In this document: positions 13,601 through 30,968 of the stretch, piece by piece | How the letters are laid out: every line of letters begins with the position of its first letter | Position numbering within the stretch: position 1 is the stretch's first letter | Assembly: GCA_019894975.1 (NCBI GenBank) | Contig: JAGXNO010000001.1 | Location: 165,677 to 229,676 of the forward strand | Origin: Promethearchaeota archaeon | GTDB taxonomy: Archaea; Asgardarchaeota; Lokiarchaeia; Sigyniarchaeales; SOKP01 | Direction: 5' to 3' | DNA length: 64,000 bases | The notes under the pieces: generated by a model | What the model was told of the DNA's origin: nothing | What the model saw: the letters and a program-made list of their open reading frames with translations, nothing else | Databases searched by the model: none | Program-made: the position numbers and the translations under genes

Positions 13601-15567
13601 TCAAATGGAGGATTTTCTCCTAATTTACCTCTTCTTACAGCTGTTTTCATATCTGTATCATATTCTCTTGCCAATCTTTCAGCTTTGTTAATCATGTCAT
13701 TAATTAACTGTTTAAAATCCTCCTCTTCCTGCTGTTGTTGCCTTTGTTCTGTAATCTTCGTCAATTTTTCATCTTCAATACCAATTTTTTTCTCTTCTTT
13801 TTGTATTTTTAATATATCTTCTACTTGTTTCTGTTTTAACTCCTTTTCCGCTTCAATCTGTCTTAATTTTTTATCTTTTCCTAGTTTTTCTGTATAAGCT
13901 TGAACTTGGCTCAAATATATCGCAGCATCTGTTTCCCAACCTCTCTCAAGGGATCGTTCTCTTGCTGTTTTGAAAATATTGATAATTTCGGGATAAGGGC
14001 ATTCTAATTCAAATTTTCCTTTTCGGAGAGCGACTTCATATTCTCTGGCTAGTCTTTCAGCTTTATTAGTCATTTCTTCATTTTCAGTTCTAATTTTTTG
14101 GTTTTCTATTTCTTTACTGAATTTTTCATCCGATACTTGTGGACCTTTTTCTTTTAGAGCAGGTATTTCTTCCACTCTCGTAACTTTTAAGAAATCCTCT
14201 GCTTCTTTTTGTTTTATAACTTTTTCAGCTTCAATCTGTCTAATTTTTTTATCTTGTTCAAATTTCTGAATATAGACATTGATGGTATCATCATAAATTG
14301 CTGCTTCACTTCTCCATCCTTTATCAATTAAAAGCTCCTTTATTTTCTTATAGATTTCAATAACTTGAGGATAAGTACAATCTTCAATTAACTCCCCTTT
14401 TTTAATTGCTTTTTGCATTGCTAATTCATATTCACGAGCCATGCGAGACGCTTCGGTGACCATATTATCAATTTGGGCTTTAAAAAACTCAGTCTCCATC
14501 TTTTGAAGCTCAATTCCTCTAAACCTCTCCAATTTTTCAATTCTTACGTCTGACGCTATTTCCTTTACTTGTTGTTCAAGAGAATCTACTTGATCCTTTT
14601 GAGTTTCAATCTCCATTTCCGGCCCTACTTCTTTTTTCTCCAACTCTTCTACATAAGTTAGGTGTTCTGCATTCAATTGAGCGAGAGTTTCGTCTATTTT
14701 CTTTACCTCATATTCCCAACCTAGCTCTTGAAATAATTTACGCCCTTCACCATATAGTTGTAACGCCTCCTTATACTGTTTATACCTGGATAATTCCGCT
14801 GCTTGTCCTAATAGGTCGTATGCCTGTGTTGAGAGTTCCTCCTCCTTTTTTTTAGAACTAAGGTATTGTGTTAATTTATCATCTTTTAATTGACCTTCGG
14901 CAGGAGTTTCTCTTAGTTCTGGTTCAACTTGAGTCTCAGACGTACCGACTTTTACGCTCCGCAGAAATTCTGCTTTTTTAATGTAACATTCTTCAATTAG
15001 TTTAAAAACGCGATCAACTTCGTCTGGTTTATTCATACTTTCGAAAATCTCAATAGCCTCATCATATTTATCTAAAGCTTCTTCGAAACTATTATTTTGC
15101 AGCAAATTATTACCATCATTGATTAAATCGACTGCTTTTGCTAATAAATCTACTATAAATTCCTCTTGAGCTAATTCAAGTTGGAGATCAGAAGCAAGAG
15201 GTTCATCAGGAATATCCACCACAATGGCTTTTTCAGCATCTTGATCTTGTTTAATTTCATCTTCTCGAAATGCTTGCTCCTTTAATAAATAGACTTCAGA
15301 GATTTTATCGTTAATGGCTTTAATCTCTTCTTCTCTATTAATTTGGGCATAGAGTCCAATAGCCTGGCGTAAAACCTCTATACTGTCATCATAATATTTG
15401 GTTTTTATAAGATTTAATGCATGTTCAACCCGTTCATACGCTTCAGAAGCAATATCCTCTTCCATTCCAATTAAATCTGAAAAAAACGCTTCTTTTGTTG
15501 GATCAAATCCATCCTCATCATCTTCTTCAAACTCATCTTCTTCATGCTCATCCATACGAATCACCAA
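10654..15567 (-). CDS. 1637-aa charged helical-repeat protein (TPR/MIT-like three-helix modules separated by coiled-coil linkers)
   Basis: Seven copies of 'AE+LAREY...PY.EII.IY...GW..E...I..Y..K...D..LR..E..K' plus shorter TPR-like units at both ends; acidic N-terminus. Confidence 0.8.
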   Translation of the reverse strand: MVIRMDEHEEDEFEEDDEDGFDPTKEAFFSDLIGMEEDIASEAYERVEHALNLIKTKYYDDSIEVLRQAIGLYAQINREEEIKAINDKISEVYLLKEQAFREDEIKQDQDAEKAIVVDIPDEPLASDLQLELAQEEFIVDLLAKAVDLINDGNNLLQNNSFEEALDKYDEAIEIFESMNKPDEVDRVFKLIEECYIKKAEFLRSVKVGTSETQVEPELRETPAEGQLKDDKLTQYLSSKKKEEELSTQAYDLLGQAAELSRYKQYKEALQLYGEGRKLFQELGWEYEVKKIDETLAQLNAEHLTYVEELEKKEVGPEMEIETQKDQVDSLEQQVKEIASDVRIEKLERFRGIELQKMETEFFKAQIDNMVTEASRMAREYELAMQKAIKKGELIEDCTYPQVIEIYKKIKELLIDKGWRSEAAIYDDTINVYIQKFEQDKKIRQIEAEKVIKQKEAEDFLKVTRVEEIPALKEKGPQVSDEKFSKEIENQKIRTENEEMTNKAERLAREYEVALRKGKFELECPYPEIINIFKTARERSLERGWETDAAIYLSQVQAYTEKLGKDKKLRQIEAEKELKQKQVEDILKIQKEEKKIGIEDEKLTKITEQRQQQQEEEDFKQLINDMINKAERLAREYDTDMKTAVRRGKLGENPPFEDIIKIYERARQIGLTKGRTEDISTFDNQISYYAQQWEKDNNLREVEAQKIQKQTEIEEMHKGGRKVEIDKGRLELLEKKKEEEDFESFITDMVNKAEKLVREHEIAMRKAMRKGEILESTPYEEVIESYHQIREKVYARGWKEQAQVYANQIKIYQDKLERHIKLLEVEAQKFQREKDIEDLHKAEATTELDLSKMKRLASKKEENEFQNYILEIINNAEKLEREYDSALKKALKKGEFIEQTPYLEIIEIYRQIQNELLERGWVDQSKIYFNQIKIYQEKLKKNEILREVEAKKAKRIQDIEEMHRVKDEFKPAKSDKIKEIDTSAKEEDILLDKAMNLIDQAEKLVKNYEISIKTDVLLYESPYEKAISYYNEAKKLLQKIGWNDEAGRLINTIKFYTDKKEKDEKLREIERKKLEEPEQELLAAKTHTEKDLFEKEKKILEIEKKKKDRANIAETIFNEIHDAERMAQAYESKIREKNFDHEPPYEEILKIYREARKKFEEIGWMEESMKLLNTIQFYKDKLEKDKRLRSLEFEKVKKQEEEQLKQKKRQANAKEEQERIIKKRKESLIEREEKARDFETTKDRAFQLMDHAKNELKQNNFEKAIELYKNSEEIFIQISWQEGINMVRDSVAMIKRKQKMFEHEQQTIVDKRAEKLKIEERLEEKFMKAEELQKRQQEEKRKEFLKLQSEKQWEREISEEAYELLKQGTSLVDSKKFDEGYAKYMEARKLFNKISWKREVSRINNDLLFKLQRERKAHDVLEDIKKKRADEVKKREVLKEETEKERREYATQQKAEKRKLEKEKSERKGIKEVDRAEKLIENYKYNEGIKILIIERGKLEKSGRKDEVNRIDKLILKVKEETNVPIITLLPTDNLGSRTQVEAAYKALDRAQDSILNNRFMKVISELNESKFHLEKLNINEEIIAEIDGKIIEFQKKLGKKIEITDQEQPSDSEMLKARIAARREERRKKVLDLLKKK

Positions 15568-24146: not shown

Positions 24147-24844
24147 AATTTTTTACCTTTTTTTTTAATTTACTTTTATTTTTAAATAAACATATTTAAT
24201 TATTCAATTTTGGAGCTTAAGAGCATCAGAGCTATTACTGTGTAGAAGAACAGTAAGATATTTGAGTAAAACAATTGTAGCAGTACTAAAATTTCTCAAA
24301 TTGTTTAGAACACATAAACAATCATACTTTTCGAATAAAATCTTCTAATCATAATTCATCAAATTTTAGTTAGTGATTTATGAAATCTAGTTGGATCGAC
24401 AATTCTAAAAAAGAAATTTAGCTATTTATGTCTTATAATTTTCCAAGATATTACGCCAATGACCGGTAACTTTGCTCAAAAAAGCAAAGATATATATTCG
24501 AAGCGATCTTATTGTCACATGAGCTAAACCAAAAAAGCAAAACTTTATATACATAAGTGTCTTAAAATATATTATAAATCCTAAAATCATTTATTTCATT
24601 TTTTTGTAAAAATTTTGAGAATAAACCAGAGTATTTTTGTCGGATATCTCTCATCTTTTTAACCTTTACCTCGTTTTATTTTTACTTCTACTCTCCTCTC
24701 CCTGTCTCCATATAACAATTATTCTTTTAAAGATAAAACTATTCCTAAGAAAAGGAATGATATTTCTGAATCTTGGATAAAACCCGTATATTTCAGAAAA
24801 TTGTCGGTGTATTCTTGTTTTATTTTGAAAAATCGTTATGATAT

Positions 24845-25594
24845 ATGATGAGTTACAGATCAGGATATGCGGTGTTCAAGAAGAACAGCCATTCTCCACC
24901 CATTTCAAGCGGAGATAAAACCCTTGATGAGTTGCTTTCTGGAGGATTCCATCAAGACTTAGTTTATTTGCTTTATGGAGATAAAAAATTAACCACTAAT
25001 ATTTTGTTAACAACTTCCGTCATTGTCCAAAAAGCATTTAACAACGGAGGGTTGGGTGAGGGTATCAGAGTGGCCTTTGTTGATGGGAATAATCGCTTTA
25101 ATCCCTACAACGTAAGCAAATATGCGGTTTCACAAAATTTATCCCCTCAGAAAGTCTTGGAAAATATCTTGATCTCACGAGCGTTTACATTCGACCAAAT
25201 CATTGAAATTCTGGAAAATAGGCTTTCAATGCTTGAAGATGTGAAAGTTGTGTTAATCTCTGGAATTACCACTATGTTCGAAGGATATGAAAAGCAGACT
25301 TTCGAAGAACTCCTAAGAGCAATAGATGGAATCAAACAAATGCTCTGGAAGACAAAACCCCTCATTATAATAACTGCCCCTTTGCATGAGCATTCTCTTT
25401 TCAGACCAAAAGGGGGAAAAATTCTTTCGCATTTTGGGAGTGTGTTGGTGATGATAAATGATGATGAAAGATACGATGAATATGTTCTCGTACAACACCC
25501 TTATCTTCCGGAGAACCGGTTACTAAAATGGAAACCTCGAACTTCTAAGAAGAAAGTCCCGTTAAAGAATGCGACGATAGATTGCTGGATTTAG
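24845..25594 (+). CDS. inactive RadA/RecA-like protein (PolB2-associated, ImuA-analogous)
   Basis: SSGDKTLDELLSGG, AFVDGNNRFNPY and LENILISRAFT are RadA-like; Walker A is degenerate (LYGDKKLTT); C-terminal NATIDCWI. Confidence 0.85.
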   Translation: MMSYRSGYAVFKKNSHSPPISSGDKTLDELLSGGFHQDLVYLLYGDKKLTTNILLTTSVIVQKAFNNGGLGEGIRVAFVDGNNRFNPYNVSKYAVSQNLSPQKVLENILISRAFTFDQIIEILENRLSMLEDVKVVLISGITTMFEGYEKQTFEELLRAIDGIKQMLWKTKPLIIITAPLHEHSLFRPKGGKILSHFGSVLVMINDDERYDEYVLVQHPYLPENRLLKWKPRTSKKKVPLKNATIDCWI

Positions 25595-26814: not shown

Positions 26815-29223
26815 TTGGTTTTTCAAGAAAAATTTGATGGTTGGCTTTTAGATGTATCCACCTATGGCAATGGGGTTATTCTTTGGGTAAAAACAATAAA
26901 AGAGCAAAAGATTGTAAAAATATTTCATGATTTTTGCCCTGAATTTTTTGCGGTTCCAAGACGACATGCGGGTAAGGATTTTAAGAGATTAATACAAATT
27001 CTCAAATCACATGATAATGTAAGTAAAGTGAGAATTTGTGAGAAATATGTAAAGCTAGAGGAGCATGAAAAAACCAAAATCTTTGGCGTTTCTGTAATAA
27101 AACCTTCAGTATTTAAAAAAACAATCAAAGAAATCGATGAAATTGAGCTTTTTACACTATATAACACAGATCTACCAATCGCTCAGATGTATTTCTACGT
27201 AAATGACTTATTTCCTATGTCTTTATGTGGGTTTAAGGTCAAACTTGAAAAGAAGAAGAAAGCTGATGGATACTTTATGCGTTTAGTCTCGTTAGAATTA
27301 AAAGACGATAACGAAAAGTTGTTTTACGATTTACCTCCTCTTAAAGCGGTCTGGTTGGATATTAAGATACAGCAACAAGGAATGAGATCATATTTTAACG
27401 ATCCTCTAGCATACGTCGAAGTGAGTATTGTTGAAAAAGATGAAAAAGCCAACATTCCACGGGCAGACGGACAGAGAAAGAAAAAAATTCTAATTGATGA
27501 AGCTGATGAGGCTGAAACTATCAAGAAGATCAGTAAAGTAATTGAAAGATTAAATCCCGATATTATCCTTACGCATGGAGGTGATGAGTTTGTGTTTCCA
27601 TACTTGGTTGCACGAGCATCAGTAAATCATGTCTCTAAGGATCTATATCTCTCTCGCACCAGGACACCCCTTAAAAACTGTATTTTTCAGCTTTCAGGAA
27701 ACTCTGATCATTATATGACCTATGGGATGATAATGCGCCGTTCCAAGACTCAAGTATATCTTACTGGTCGTTTTCATTTGGATACTACTACTTATGGCAG
27801 TTTGCACTTTAGTGAAGGTAATATACCTGGTGTTATTGAAGTCGCAAGAATCTCTCGAGTACCAATGCAAAGATTATGTAGGGTAACTATTGGGGGGGCA
27901 CTTCAATCAATACAGTACTATAATGCATATAAGCTAGATCATCTTATTCCTCCTTTTAAGAAGAGCCCAGAAGACTTTCGAAATGGTATGGAACTCATTG
28001 TTAATGATCGAGGAGGCCATATTTTTGAACCCTTAATCGGTGTTTTTGATCAAGTTGCGGAACTAGACTTTTCAAGCATGTATCCTTCTCTAATGGCTAA
28101 CTTCAACATTTCTTCAGAAACTATAAACTGTAAGTGCTGTAAGGATGACGGAACAGGAGTTAAAGTTCCTGGCACAAGTTTCCACATCTGTTCAAAGCGA
28201 GAAGGAATCATCTCCAAATCCATTAGCTTACCTCTCAAAAAACGCCTATATTACAAGGAATACAACAAGACACATGATGATCTACGGTACAAATTTACTG
28301 ATATTGCATTAAAATGGGTGCTTGTAGTGAGTTTTGGGTATCTGGGTTTTAAGAATGCTCGTTTTGGTAAAATTGAAGCACATCAGACGGTTTGTGCTTT
28401 TGCACGCGAATTCCTCATGCGATCTGCAGAAATAGCTCAAAATCATGGTTGTAAAGTTGTCCATGGAATTGTTGATTCAATGTGGCTTCAAGATACGAAA
28501 GGAAGAACTCCAAAAGAATTCGAAGAATTAACAAAGAAAATTGCAGATGAAATATCTGATAATATTGGTATTCCAATGAGTTGGGACGGATTATTTGATA
28601 CTATCGTCTTTTTACCCTCCCGAGCAGAACCTGATATCCCCGCACTTAGTCATTATTGGGGAATAAAAAATGATGGGGAGATCAAGGTAAGAGGTATTGA
28701 GGTCAGACGTAGAGATATACCAAAAATAGTAAAAGATGCTCAATATGCTTTTATTGATATTTTTCAAGGTGCAAAGACTGTTGAGGAGTTTACAAAAAGG
28801 ATTCCAGAAGCAAAGAAAAAACTTTATGAATATGCCGAAAGAGTCTATTCGGGTAATGTTACACGTGAAGAACTTACAATTCGACAAAAGATCTCTCGTC
28901 GACCTTCACAATACAAAGTTAACAGTTACCAGGCTGTAGCTGCTAAACAGCTTGAGCGCTCTGGAGTAATAGCATCAGCAGGAAAAAACGTTCGTTATAT
29001 TATTCTTAACGCTGAAGCAAACCCTGATTTTCCCGAAAAGAAGGTAATCCTATCCGATCTATTTGATGAAAAAAAGCATGAGTATGACAGAAAAAAATAT
29101 GTAGAATTGCTAAAAAGATCTTTTGAAAACATTCTTCCTTTCGAATTTCCTGAACTTGAGGAATTACTAAAATCTGATTATAACAAAAAATCAATTCAAA
29201 GAGATCTATCTTGTTTTATTTAG
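26815..29223 (+). CDS. polB2: family B DNA polymerase, PolB2 group
   Basis: Motif A ELDFSSMYPS, motif B KWVLVVSFGYLG, motif C HGIVDS (instead of YGDTDS), KVRGIEVRRRD, eroded exonuclease motifs, CKCC..HIC insert, C-terminal PIP-like QRDLSCFI. Confidence 0.92.
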   Translation: MVFQEKFDGWLLDVSTYGNGVILWVKTIKEQKIVKIFHDFCPEFFAVPRRHAGKDFKRLIQILKSHDNVSKVRICEKYVKLEEHEKTKIFGVSVIKPSVFKKTIKEIDEIELFTLYNTDLPIAQMYFYVNDLFPMSLCGFKVKLEKKKKADGYFMRLVSLELKDDNEKLFYDLPPLKAVWLDIKIQQQGMRSYFNDPLAYVEVSIVEKDEKANIPRADGQRKKKILIDEADEAETIKKISKVIERLNPDIILTHGGDEFVFPYLVARASVNHVSKDLYLSRTRTPLKNCIFQLSGNSDHYMTYGMIMRRSKTQVYLTGRFHLDTTTYGSLHFSEGNIPGVIEVARISRVPMQRLCRVTIGGALQSIQYYNAYKLDHLIPPFKKSPEDFRNGMELIVNDRGGHIFEPLIGVFDQVAELDFSSMYPSLMANFNISSETINCKCCKDDGTGVKVPGTSFHICSKREGIISKSISLPLKKRLYYKEYNKTHDDLRYKFTDIALKWVLVVSFGYLGFKNARFGKIEAHQTVCAFAREFLMRSAEIAQNHGCKVVHGIVDSMWLQDTKGRTPKEFEELTKKIADEISDNIGIPMSWDGLFDTIVFLPSRAEPDIPALSHYWGIKNDGEIKVRGIEVRRRDIPKIVKDAQYAFIDIFQGAKTVEEFTKRIPEAKKKLYEYAERVYSGNVTREELTIRQKISRRPSQYKVNSYQAVAAKQLERSGVIASAGKNVRYIILNAEANPDFPEKKVILSDLFDEKKHEYDRKKYVELLKRSFENILPFEFPELEELLKSDYNKKSIQRDLSCFI

Positions 29224-29331
29224 GAGATTAGGAGTCCCGACATAAAAATGTGATAACTTATTTCTAGCGACAAAAAGGTATAATAACCCCTTAATAGTTT
29301 CCTTTAAATATGGATCACTCAATACATATAT

Positions 29332-29617
29332 TGTTCATATCTGACAATGTGAAGCAATTCGCATCTCATATGAATGTCGAGAAGTAGTATTAGCAAGTCA
29401 GTGTGTTGCGCCAATTGAATTACTTTCGAGTAAGACAATCTGGTAAAATTGAACTTCCCTCACGGGAAGAAAAACTATATTTTCGGGTATAGAATTGAAT
29501 AATAGGTTTCCGGATCTGCTATTCAAATCGATTTAATACATTGAAAATCTGTAGGAAACTATGGATAGCTGATACCTCGTCGATGAAACCTTCGGGATTC
29601 ATTAACGGCTTCTCGTC
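29332..29617 (+). ncRNA. candidate large structured ncRNA of unknown family
   Basis: Nested long-range helices 29378-85/29608-15, 29387-94/29568-75 and 29398-408/29534-44. Hairpins are capped by GCAA, UUCG (three times), GAAA, UCCG and UCAC. Upstream TTTAAATA at 29303-29310; downstream pyrimidine/T-rich tract. Confidence 0.75.
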
Positions 29618-29696
29618 CCTTTATCTTTTAATCTTTCTTAAACTAAGAGTAATTTCTTTATCCTTGAATGTTCATAAAATAGAGAAAAAAAAAAAT

Positions 29697-30239
29697 TTAG
29701 GGAAGTGTGAGTACTTCAAAGAAATCAAATATAATTATTATTAAGCAGAGCAATTCGATTAAAATCCATATATTTCTTTTCAAACTTCTCAGCGCACCAA
29801 GAGGCTTACCGAAATAATTTAAAAGATTGTATATGAAGATAACGATCCAAGCAGTCACTAGAAACACAATAGGAAGAAGCAATGTAATGATTTCACGACC
29901 CTCATATTTCAGTAAATACTCATATCCAAGGATTGAAAACCCAACAATCACAAGAGTAAAACCAAAACCAAATGTATATTCTGCGAAGGTTACAAAACGT
30001 TTAACTCTCTCATCACTATTATCTCTTGAATTGGCTTCAAAATTTGCTTTTGAATTAGCAGATACGGAATTAACAAAGAAGATAAATGAAAGCATCAGCA
30101 AGAAGGTTATAGTAACAATACCATTATCCGGAGGTAATTGCCAAATTAAGGCAAGAATTGTTAAAACTGCGCCAATCATTACAGTACTTAATGTTATCCA
30201 GTCCTTTACGTTTAATTTCTGACTTTCTTCACTACTCAT
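29697..30239 (-). CDS. hypothetical membrane protein
   Basis: 180 aa, about 5 TM segments. Confidence 0.7.
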   Translation of the reverse strand: MSSEESQKLNVKDWITLSTVMIGAVLTILALIWQLPPDNGIVTITFLLMLSFIFFVNSVSANSKANFEANSRDNSDERVKRFVTFAEYTFGFGFTLVIVGFSILGYEYLLKYEGREIITLLLPIVFLVTAWIVIFIYNLLNYFGKPLGALRSLKRNIWILIELLCLIIIIFDFFEVLTLP

Positions 30240-30347
30240 TTTTATTACCTTAAAACAAAATGAATTAAATCTACTGTAACCTCAGTATTTAAAAATGTTA
30301 ATATTGCTTTTGACAGAAAAGAATCAAAAAAAATTGGGATTAATAAG

Positions 30348-30968
30348 CTAAAAAGGTTGTCTTATAACCGTCTTCATAGTAGCGGGATTTGCTTTTCGTG
30401 GATCACTAAGATAAATCTCATGATGTTTAGCTTTAAGCCCATCAAATTTACCTCCCTCTTTCTGAATATGATCATGAACCTTTTGGACTGTAGGTCCCTC
30501 CTCCGAATAAGGGCCTATATGCATAATCTGAGCTGCTTTTCCTTCCTTATACTTTTCTAAACGGAGTTTTGGCAATAACTTCAAGAGTTCAGGTTTTTTA
30601 TCTTTAGTAATTGTAATCGCTTCATCAATCATTTCTTGAGTAATCCAATCTGGTTGCCTTATCATCATCGTCCATTTCCATTTGTCCCGATTTCCCTCTG
30701 TAAAGTCATTCAGGTTATCTGCCCACCACAGACCCTCCAACGGAGGTACTACATAATCTTTACCTTTAGCTTTGCTAAGGAACTTGGTTCTAAATGATAC
30801 AGGATATAACACTGAGAGAGCATCTTGGTATTCTTGGGAATCTCCGGGAGAACCCATCCCATCAATCATCAGAAATTGCATTTCCGGTACTTCAATTATT
30901 ACTGGATCTTTAGCATTTGGTTGATAAAGCTCTTTTTGAGTCTTTTTGTAATCAATTTTTACTGGCAA
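30348..30968 (-). CDS. GyrI-like small-molecule-binding domain protein
   Basis: DYVVPPLEGLWW, WTMMIRQPD, HIGPYSEE, HHEIYLSDPRK; GAGGTG RBS. Confidence 0.9.
   Translation of the reverse strand: MPVKIDYKKTQKELYQPNAKDPVIIEVPEMQFLMIDGMGSPGDSQEYQDALSVLYPVSFRTKFLSKAKGKDYVVPPLEGLWWADNLNDFTEGNRDKWKWTMMIRQPDWITQEMIDEAITITKDKKPELLKLLPKLRLEKYKEGKAAQIMHIGPYSEEGPTVQKVHDHIQKEGGKFDGLKAKHHEIYLSDPRKANPATMKTVIRQPF

Follow-up and report, generated by a model that had tools for sequence, protein, structure and literature searches.

The locus analyzed here raises a simple question: what is encoded by the roughly 285 nt that follow polB2 in a 64-kb stretch of Promethearchaeota DNA (the window), a segment that an earlier note, written from the letters alone, had taken for a large structured RNA? 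The upstream neighbor is polB2 itself (26815..29223, + strand), which encodes an 802-aa B-family polymerase with Pfam DNA_pol_B and exonuclease domains and lies outside the RNA gene; downstream, in convergent orientation, is a gene for a 180-aa membrane protein with a weak DUF443 match (29697..30239, - strand). The segment 29332-29617 (+) has a predicted folding energy of -90.3 kcal/mol, compared with -60.5 +/- 4.6 kcal/mol for 200 dinucleotide-preserving shuffles. None of the shuffles folds as well, and the z-score of -6.46 is remarkable by the shuffling test that the note had proposed. The reverse complement reaches a z-score of only -2.18, in agreement with the + strand asymmetry claimed earlier.

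Every helix and hairpin of the earlier description is present in the minimum-free-energy fold of this segment. The predicted RNA, which is supported by the fold z-score, covariation and a covariance model (R1, which gives 310.9 bits on the window copy), has a length of ca. 293 nt (29333..29625, +) and belongs to the form that we call type A. It begins with a 5' hairpin, HP0 (29333-29375), which contains the helix 29332-40/29368-76 and a GCAA hairpin and lies outside the closing helix, P1 (29378-85/29608-15). Nested within P1 are helices P2 (29387-94/29568-75) and P3 (29398-408/29534-44). Four of the six side hairpins belong to the central part (29410-44, 29454-69, 29475-92, and 29495-526), where the minimum-free-energy fold adds to the earlier description one helix, 29446-52/29527-33, which closes a three-hairpin junction. 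The other two are He (29547-66, GAAA loop) and Hf (29578-607, UUCG loop), and the RNA ends with the 3' tail UCCCUU. All of these elements are on the + strand. On sequence grounds, this is a genuine gene that has a promoter of its own and encodes an extensively folded non-coding RNA.

The promoter comprises three elements on the + strand. The TATA-like box reported earlier was found as TTTAAATA at 29303..29310, 23 nt ahead of G29333, with which the 5' hairpin begins; we infer that transcription starts at G29333, since archaeal initiation at this base would fit the TATA geometry. Directly 5' of the TATA box is a direct-repeat element, TAATAA-CCCC-TTAATAG (29281..29297), which is nearly invariant over four size forms of the RNA (types A, A2, B, and C) and is a candidate BRE or regulator site. 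Farther upstream, between about -66 and -58 relative to the predicted start, is the box GCGACAAAAA with the core CGACAAAA (29267..29276). Of the 41 homologous genes for which upstream sequence is available, most have the core box, at a constant distance and regardless of their locus; in the same 41 homologs the TATA box reads TTTAAATA or TTTATATA, and its spacing to the TTGTTCA that follows is fixed at 20 nt. The consensus order is thus CGACAAAA, TAATAAyCCCTTAATAG, 5 nt, TTTAAATA, 20 nt, TTGTTCA. In almost all copies for which it is available, and at whichever locus, this upstream region of ca. 70 nt is conserved to the same degree as the RNA. With a position weight matrix built from these 70 nt, the window gene scores 81.6 and the runner-up in the 3.9-Mb genome 2.5, and the RNA promoter motif is unique in the genome. 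A promoter common to stable RNAs was considered and rejected, as the SRP and RNase P promoters lack the motif and there is no second genomic site; matches to the promoter pattern in genomes that lack the RNA proved to be the promoter of a Cdc6/Orc1 gene. Because it has a dedicated and conserved promoter, the RNA gene can be regarded as an independent transcription unit, and this promoter is probably regulated.

At the other end, the T/pyrimidine tract noted earlier corresponds to a CCCUUU tail and U-rich tract after the closing helix. This conserved CCUU tail with its U-rich tract (29616..29645, +) is a candidate transcription stop. In all types, the terminal copies have (U/A)CCUU(U/C)U followed by T-rich sequence after P1, and the first modules of tandem loci in a sister genus do not have this tail. 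The element thus probably serves as the site of termination.

A BLAST search for homologs turned up full-length relatives in three genomes of the genus, including one with two tandem copies. With the covariance model R1, built from five sequences, a full-length match was obtained in 36 of the 54 genomes of this genus; eight of these carry type A (ca. 295 nt) and 28 carry a longer type B (345-360 nt). When 185,579 species genomes were then scanned for a motif, 11 bacterial and 43 archaeal stretches emerged, the latter labelled Promethearchaeota (Asgard) or uncultured archaeon. All but one of the archaeal stretches (42) and none of the bacterial stretches were recognized by R1, and the scan brought out a shorter form, A2 (258-277 nt), and a longer one, C (382 nt). 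Some 31 JGI metagenome contigs also carry the same RNA forms. All forms fold well, with z-scores of -6.5 to -10.8 (-7.2 and -8.3 for type B).

The homologs also show the compensatory changes that the earlier note had asked for. In 22 type B sequences, 94.2% of the cells in a 119-pair consensus structure are paired, compared with 37-44% in slid controls, in which the pairing partners were shifted by 1-3 columns. Double changes occur in 32 pairs (115 cells) of the type B structure versus 5-18 pairs (11-32 cells) in the controls, and none of 500 shuffles reaches the observed covariation. When all types were considered, 91.4% of the cells pair in 51 aligned copies (37-43% when slid), with double compensatory changes in 86 of 109 pairs (33-42 when slid) and in 576 cells (70-114 when slid); this alignment was fitted to the model and leans towards it, but an independent MAFFT alignment of the 22 type B sequences agrees. 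Here, too, none of 500 shuffles reaches the observed value. Covariation of this strength indicates that the RNA structure is real and under selection.

Comparison of the aligned copies reveals a conserved shell around a variable center. The features shared by all forms are the 5' hairpin (GUUCA/UGAAC), helices P1, P2, and P3, the two 3' hairpins, and the (U/A)CCUU tail. The shell helices are conserved in sequence, beyond what pairing demands, and P1 (CGAGAAG/CUUCUCG) and P2 (GUAUU/AAUAC) are invariant. The 3' hairpins occupy fixed places: the GNRA-capped He separates the 3' strand of P3 from that of P2, and the UUCG-capped Hf separates the latter from the 3' strand of P1. The 5' hairpin, P1, P2, Hf, and the tail all gather at the 5'/3' end of the RNA. 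The window copy has both this shell and the TAATAA/TTAATAG-TTTAAATA promoter, the features common to the 51 aligned copies by which the family is defined. The central domain, on the other hand, is variable and expandable, such that the whole RNA ranges from 258 to ca. 750 nt. The window RNA has three hairpins in this domain; types B and C, which align well with each other, have five. Some loci in the sister genus that appear to be tandem copies fold as one RNA of ca. 660-750 nt closed by the family P1. In two of these, L182 (1186-1856, +; z = -10.8) and L088 (6020-6768, +; z = -7.7), both after polB2, the P1/P2/P3 shell surrounds A-like and B/C-like central modules. As there is no promoter between the modules, L182 and L088 may each represent one giant RNA instead of a tandem gene pair. 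A separate observation concerns the 5' strand of P2 and its neighbors in type B (GAGGUAUUGUUACCUC; columns 32-47 of alignment A5, e.g., in L030), which are self-complementary and form an alternative local hairpin when the 3' strand of P2 is absent. Type A lacks this hairpin, a possible folding intermediate or switch.

None of the known RNA families that we considered accounts for the segment. Rfam 15 gave no match at gathering score anywhere in the 64-kb window, no match at E<=10 inside the window RNA, and no match at E<=1 for types B, A2, or C or the giant forms. The cmscan check proposed in the earlier note thus leaves the novelty of every size form standing. The models for OLE, GOLLD, ROOL, HEARO, and raiA likewise show no covariance-model similarity to any size form. 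The genuine RNase P RNA of this genome lies on another contig (G000:C86:41383-41706; 132.3 bits, above the cut-off), as does a full-length match to SRP RNA (G000:C175:9948-10242; 56 bits), and because both are found elsewhere, an RNase P or SRP identity was rejected. Neither RF00373 (at E<=10) nor the archaeal SRP model RF01857 matches the segment, and the P4 pseudoknot core of RNase P (CR-I GAGGAAAGUCC and CR-V) is absent from its sequence. Group I and group II introns were dismissed in the same way, there being no Rfam match and the RNA being intergenic with its own promoter.

Other candidates were also discarded. ARAGORN predicts no genes in 28500-30500, which eliminates a tRNA-like RNA or tmRNA. 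A Y RNA of a Ro60 RNP is disfavored by the genome (95% complete), in which the TROVE domain (PF05731) was not found, although control genomes did match; searches of the genome for La and Vault domains gave no match, but their controls likewise matched nothing anywhere. A riboswitch or cis-regulatory leader does not fit, as at type A loci, and at most loci of type B, the genes that follow are transcribed towards the RNA. For a mobile-element guide RNA (omega RNA, bridge RNA, or retron ncRNA), no TnpB/IscB, recombinase, or reverse-transcriptase gene was found among the neighbors examined, that is, the flanking genes in the window and representatives of the main type B neighbors, which were compared with Pfam, the others being clustered by BLAST only. 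By eye, no K-turn, bulge-helix-bulge, C/D, or H/ACA motif in the conserved regions is both canonical and conserved. No homologous ORF was found across the RNA copies, and literature searches found no description of the RNA. The only C/D-box-like signal, a weak cmscan match to SNORD14 (18 bits, E = 1.9) at 29914-30021 (-), falls inside the ORF of the 180-aa membrane protein and is almost certainly due to chance. As far as these models can detect, the window RNA is thus a member of a previously undescribed family without a relative. The "new class of large ncRNA" put forward earlier has proved to be conserved, supported by covariation, equipped with its own promoter, and unrelated to any Rfam entry.

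The distribution of the family is narrow and patchy. A total of 151 genomes of the order were searched with a second covariance model (R2), which spans the first 273 positions at the 5' side of types B and C. R2 detected the RNA in 36 of 52 genomes of this genus and 21 of 42 of one sister genus in the same family, but gave no hit in 11 other genera of the family (36 genomes) or in three other families (19 genomes); R1 similarly found no match in 24 genomes outside the genus. Because 12-75 first-look candidates were scored per genome, this absence is provisional, and the family appears, as far as the models see, to be confined to two sister genera of Asgard (Promethearchaeota) archaea. Even there, the RNA is missing from about one-third to one-half of the genomes in both genera, including some that are 100% complete. 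One genome, G064, retains both flanking genes of the type B locus with no RNA between them, and its site after polB2 is empty as well. The RNA is therefore dispensable. As a rule there is one functional RNA locus per genome, and the window genome has a single copy. An exception is G025, with two full tandem type A genes (L065, G025:C76:5172-5998), each with a full promoter and 78-84% identical to the window RNA; this pair is a true gene duplication. Another genome, G067, has an intact type A gene at polB2 and a decayed B-like copy elsewhere (ca. 14760-15131, -, in L217, G067:C48:13300-16700) that has lost the conserved promoter and has a mutated 5' hairpin and a degenerate P1 3' strand, which points to a duplication and a subsequent reciprocal loss that left one functional locus in place.

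Does the position of the RNA next to polB2 reflect a working partnership? The earlier note had suggested a partner of the PolB2 cassette, and such an RNA could be a scaffold, a regulator, or a co-regulated damage-response RNA of PolB2 translesion synthesis that works in trans from the loci to which it has relocated. Types A, A2, and C do lie 100-170 nt past the polB2 stop codon, on the same strand and before the convergent gene for the 180-aa membrane protein, in nearly all sister-genus loci for which the fetched flank is long enough and in an eight-genome clade of this genus, and they do so despite large divergence of the RNA. Where the RNA is elsewhere or absent, only ca. 25 nt separate the polB2 stop from the end of the 180-aa gene, and the window RNA gene therefore occupies an insertion of ca. 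455 nt. However, the tabulation of homologs proposed in the note places the RNA after polB2 in these eight genomes and at other, unrelated loci in 28, where the site after polB2 is empty; type B is never found after polB2 and mostly follows a gene for a 126-aa membrane protein without a Pfam family. Orthologs of polB2 are present in 45 of the 54 genomes of the genus, of which 32 have both genes and 13 have polB2 without the RNA, while the RNA occurs without a detected polB2 in four (92-99% complete) and five have neither. No RNA gene was found downstream of polB2 in two to three other genera of the family or in a second family, the RNA has its own promoter, and an in-silico study of PolB2 mutasomes does not mention an RNA (PMC11791011). 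An obligate link is not supported by these counts. Relocation, mixed presence and absence, and the pattern of duplication and loss in G067 mean that the adjacency is best read as synteny inherited in one genus and one clade.

The one feature that might connect the two genes is a shared motif. The promoter of the radA-like/polB2 operon carries a conserved AAAATTGTCGG, which has the same TTGTCG core as the conserved CGACAAAA box of the RNA promoter but on the other strand, and four copies of CGACAAAAA lie within 8 kb here. The shared motif is a 6-mer that differs in orientation and position, and CGACAAAAA was rejected as a genome-wide regulon motif because it is not over-represented, with 42 copies in 3.9 Mb versus ca. 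50 expected. The common core is a weak hint of a link, and a functional partnership with PolB2 seems improbable overall. Three related observations were made along the way. The proximal promoter of the radA-like gene, which heads the polB2 cassette, is highly conserved in both RNA-carrying genera (ATTTCAGAAAATTGTCGGTGTA...TTTTATTTTGAAGAATCG; window 24790-24845, also L205, L207, and L210). The TTGTCGG core recurs in the window as an exact TTTTTGTCGG at 24634-43, 32650-59, and 32687-96. Finally, in a genome of another family (L215, G050:C1:195939-197238), TTTTTTTTGTCGG, the core of the repair-gene promoters in the window, is found ca. 330 nt after polB2.

Other explanations invoke the RNA itself. 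Many GNRA- or UNCG-capped hairpins radiating from multi-way junctions suggest a compact tertiary fold, the RNA has grown in modules to 660-750 nt inside one closing helix, and in no case is a nearby partner gene conserved, all of which might be expected of a ribozyme or a self-assembling RNA-only particle comparable to ROOL, GOLLD, or OLE. Yet catalytic cores have conserved junctions and loops, whereas the conserved nucleotides here are mainly in terminal helices; no palindromic kissing loop or tetraloop-receptor pair was noticed when the folds were read by eye, and no Rfam ribozyme or ornate-RNA model shows similarity. We therefore consider this possible but unlikely. The same holds for the bolder proposal that the family is a new class of modular "ornate" Asgard RNA (0.26-0.75 kb) that works as a ribozyme or self-assembles, as RNA or as an RNA-protein particle, and is possibly co-induced with a PolB2 DNA-damage regulon through the CGACAAAA box, which we view as speculative. 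The RNA of a mobile or conflict-related element, such as a defense or decoy RNA or the remnant of a mobile-element guide RNA, could explain the patchy presence within two genera, the relocation together with the promoter, the extra copies in G025 and G067, and the fast-evolving central domain. An active mobile element is argued against by the single locus per genome, by the lack of convincing direct repeats or of a target-site duplication on either side of the window copy, by the lack of a transposase, integrase, or reverse-transcriptase-like gene among the neighbors examined, and by a search with the 5' motif that gave no match in 2.9 million viral contigs; moreover, the differences in context track phylogeny, like ordinary rearrangement. 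An origin of this kind is thus quite improbable. Finally, the size and multi-helix shape, with a terminal closing helix, resemble those of RNase P and SRP RNAs, and the RNA directly follows a gene, but a diverged housekeeping RNA is hard to reconcile with the genuine RNase P and SRP RNAs elsewhere in the genome and with absence from many complete genomes, and a cis-acting 3' UTR or terminator of polB2 with a conserved TATA promoter of its own and with the occurrence of the same RNA after unrelated genes. These last possibilities are very improbable and largely refuted.

The reading that we prefer, with a probability of roughly 45%, is that the window RNA is an independently transcribed, stable RNA that would act in trans, with the shell as a protein-binding platform and the center as an evolvable scaffold. 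The shell (the 5' hairpin, P1, P2, Hf, and the CCUU tail) would be a recognition and stability module and, most likely, a platform that binds protein and protects the ends. The tetraloop-rich central domain would be a scaffold that can be remodelled and expanded, from three hairpins here to five in the 355-nt form and to several modules at 660-750 nt. In favor of this reading, conservation sits in the terminal helices and tail rather than in junctions, hairpins at or beside both ends would suit a long-lived RNA, one functional locus is as a rule kept by selection, the promoter is dedicated, and no neighbor gene is conserved. Three points weigh against it: no partner protein was identified, and the neighboring genes differ from one RNA locus to another; dispensability would be unusual for a core housekeeping RNA-protein complex; and the sequence-conserved helices of the shell could be processing signals or take part in alternative pairings instead of binding protein.

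To our knowledge, large RNAs with complex folds proven by covariation and with unassigned function are rare, and the known examples are almost all bacterial. The family described here is a rare archaeal RNA of this kind, large and ornate, with natural minimal and giant variants, and would be a new entry for RNA family databases. Its conserved core, its variants from 258 to ca. 750 nt, and its distinctive promoter make it amenable to RNA-seq, pull-down, and cryo-EM. Asgard archaea are the archaeal lineage closest to eukaryotes; nevertheless, the two-genus range and dispensability limit the general importance of the family and argue that it is not ancestral to any eukaryotic RNA.

Three groups of known RNAs come closest to the family. 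Archaeal RNase P RNA (RF00373) is likewise ca. 300 nt, with a P1 that joins the ends, nested P2 and P3, branched domains, and GNRA loops, and is stable and transcribed from its own promoters. In contrast, the window RNA lacks the P4 pseudoknot, the CR-I/CR-V motif, and a model match and carries an additional 5' hairpin beyond P1, and many genomes can do without it. Y RNAs and bacterial YrlA-type RNAs, the partners of Ro60, share with the window family a closing stem in which the 5' and 3' ends pair and the sequence is conserved, a pyrimidine- or U-rich 3' tail, a variable interior, and a patchy distribution, but the window RNA is far larger, has no tRNA-like module, and occurs in a genome in which no TROVE/Ro60 gene was found. 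The large ornate bacterial RNAs OLE (RF01071), GOLLD (RF01998), ROOL (RF03087), and raiA (RF03072), whose functions are at best beginning to emerge, differ in that the window family does not match their models in sequence or structure, has an archaeal (Asgard) host, is not tied to phages or tRNA clusters, and conserves a terminal shell rather than internal junctions. Nonetheless, they resemble it in being large, independently transcribed, and noncoding, with many tetraloop-capped hairpins, multi-way junctions, and strong covariation, in having a narrow and patchy phylogenetic range, and in reaching forms of up to 600-750 nt.
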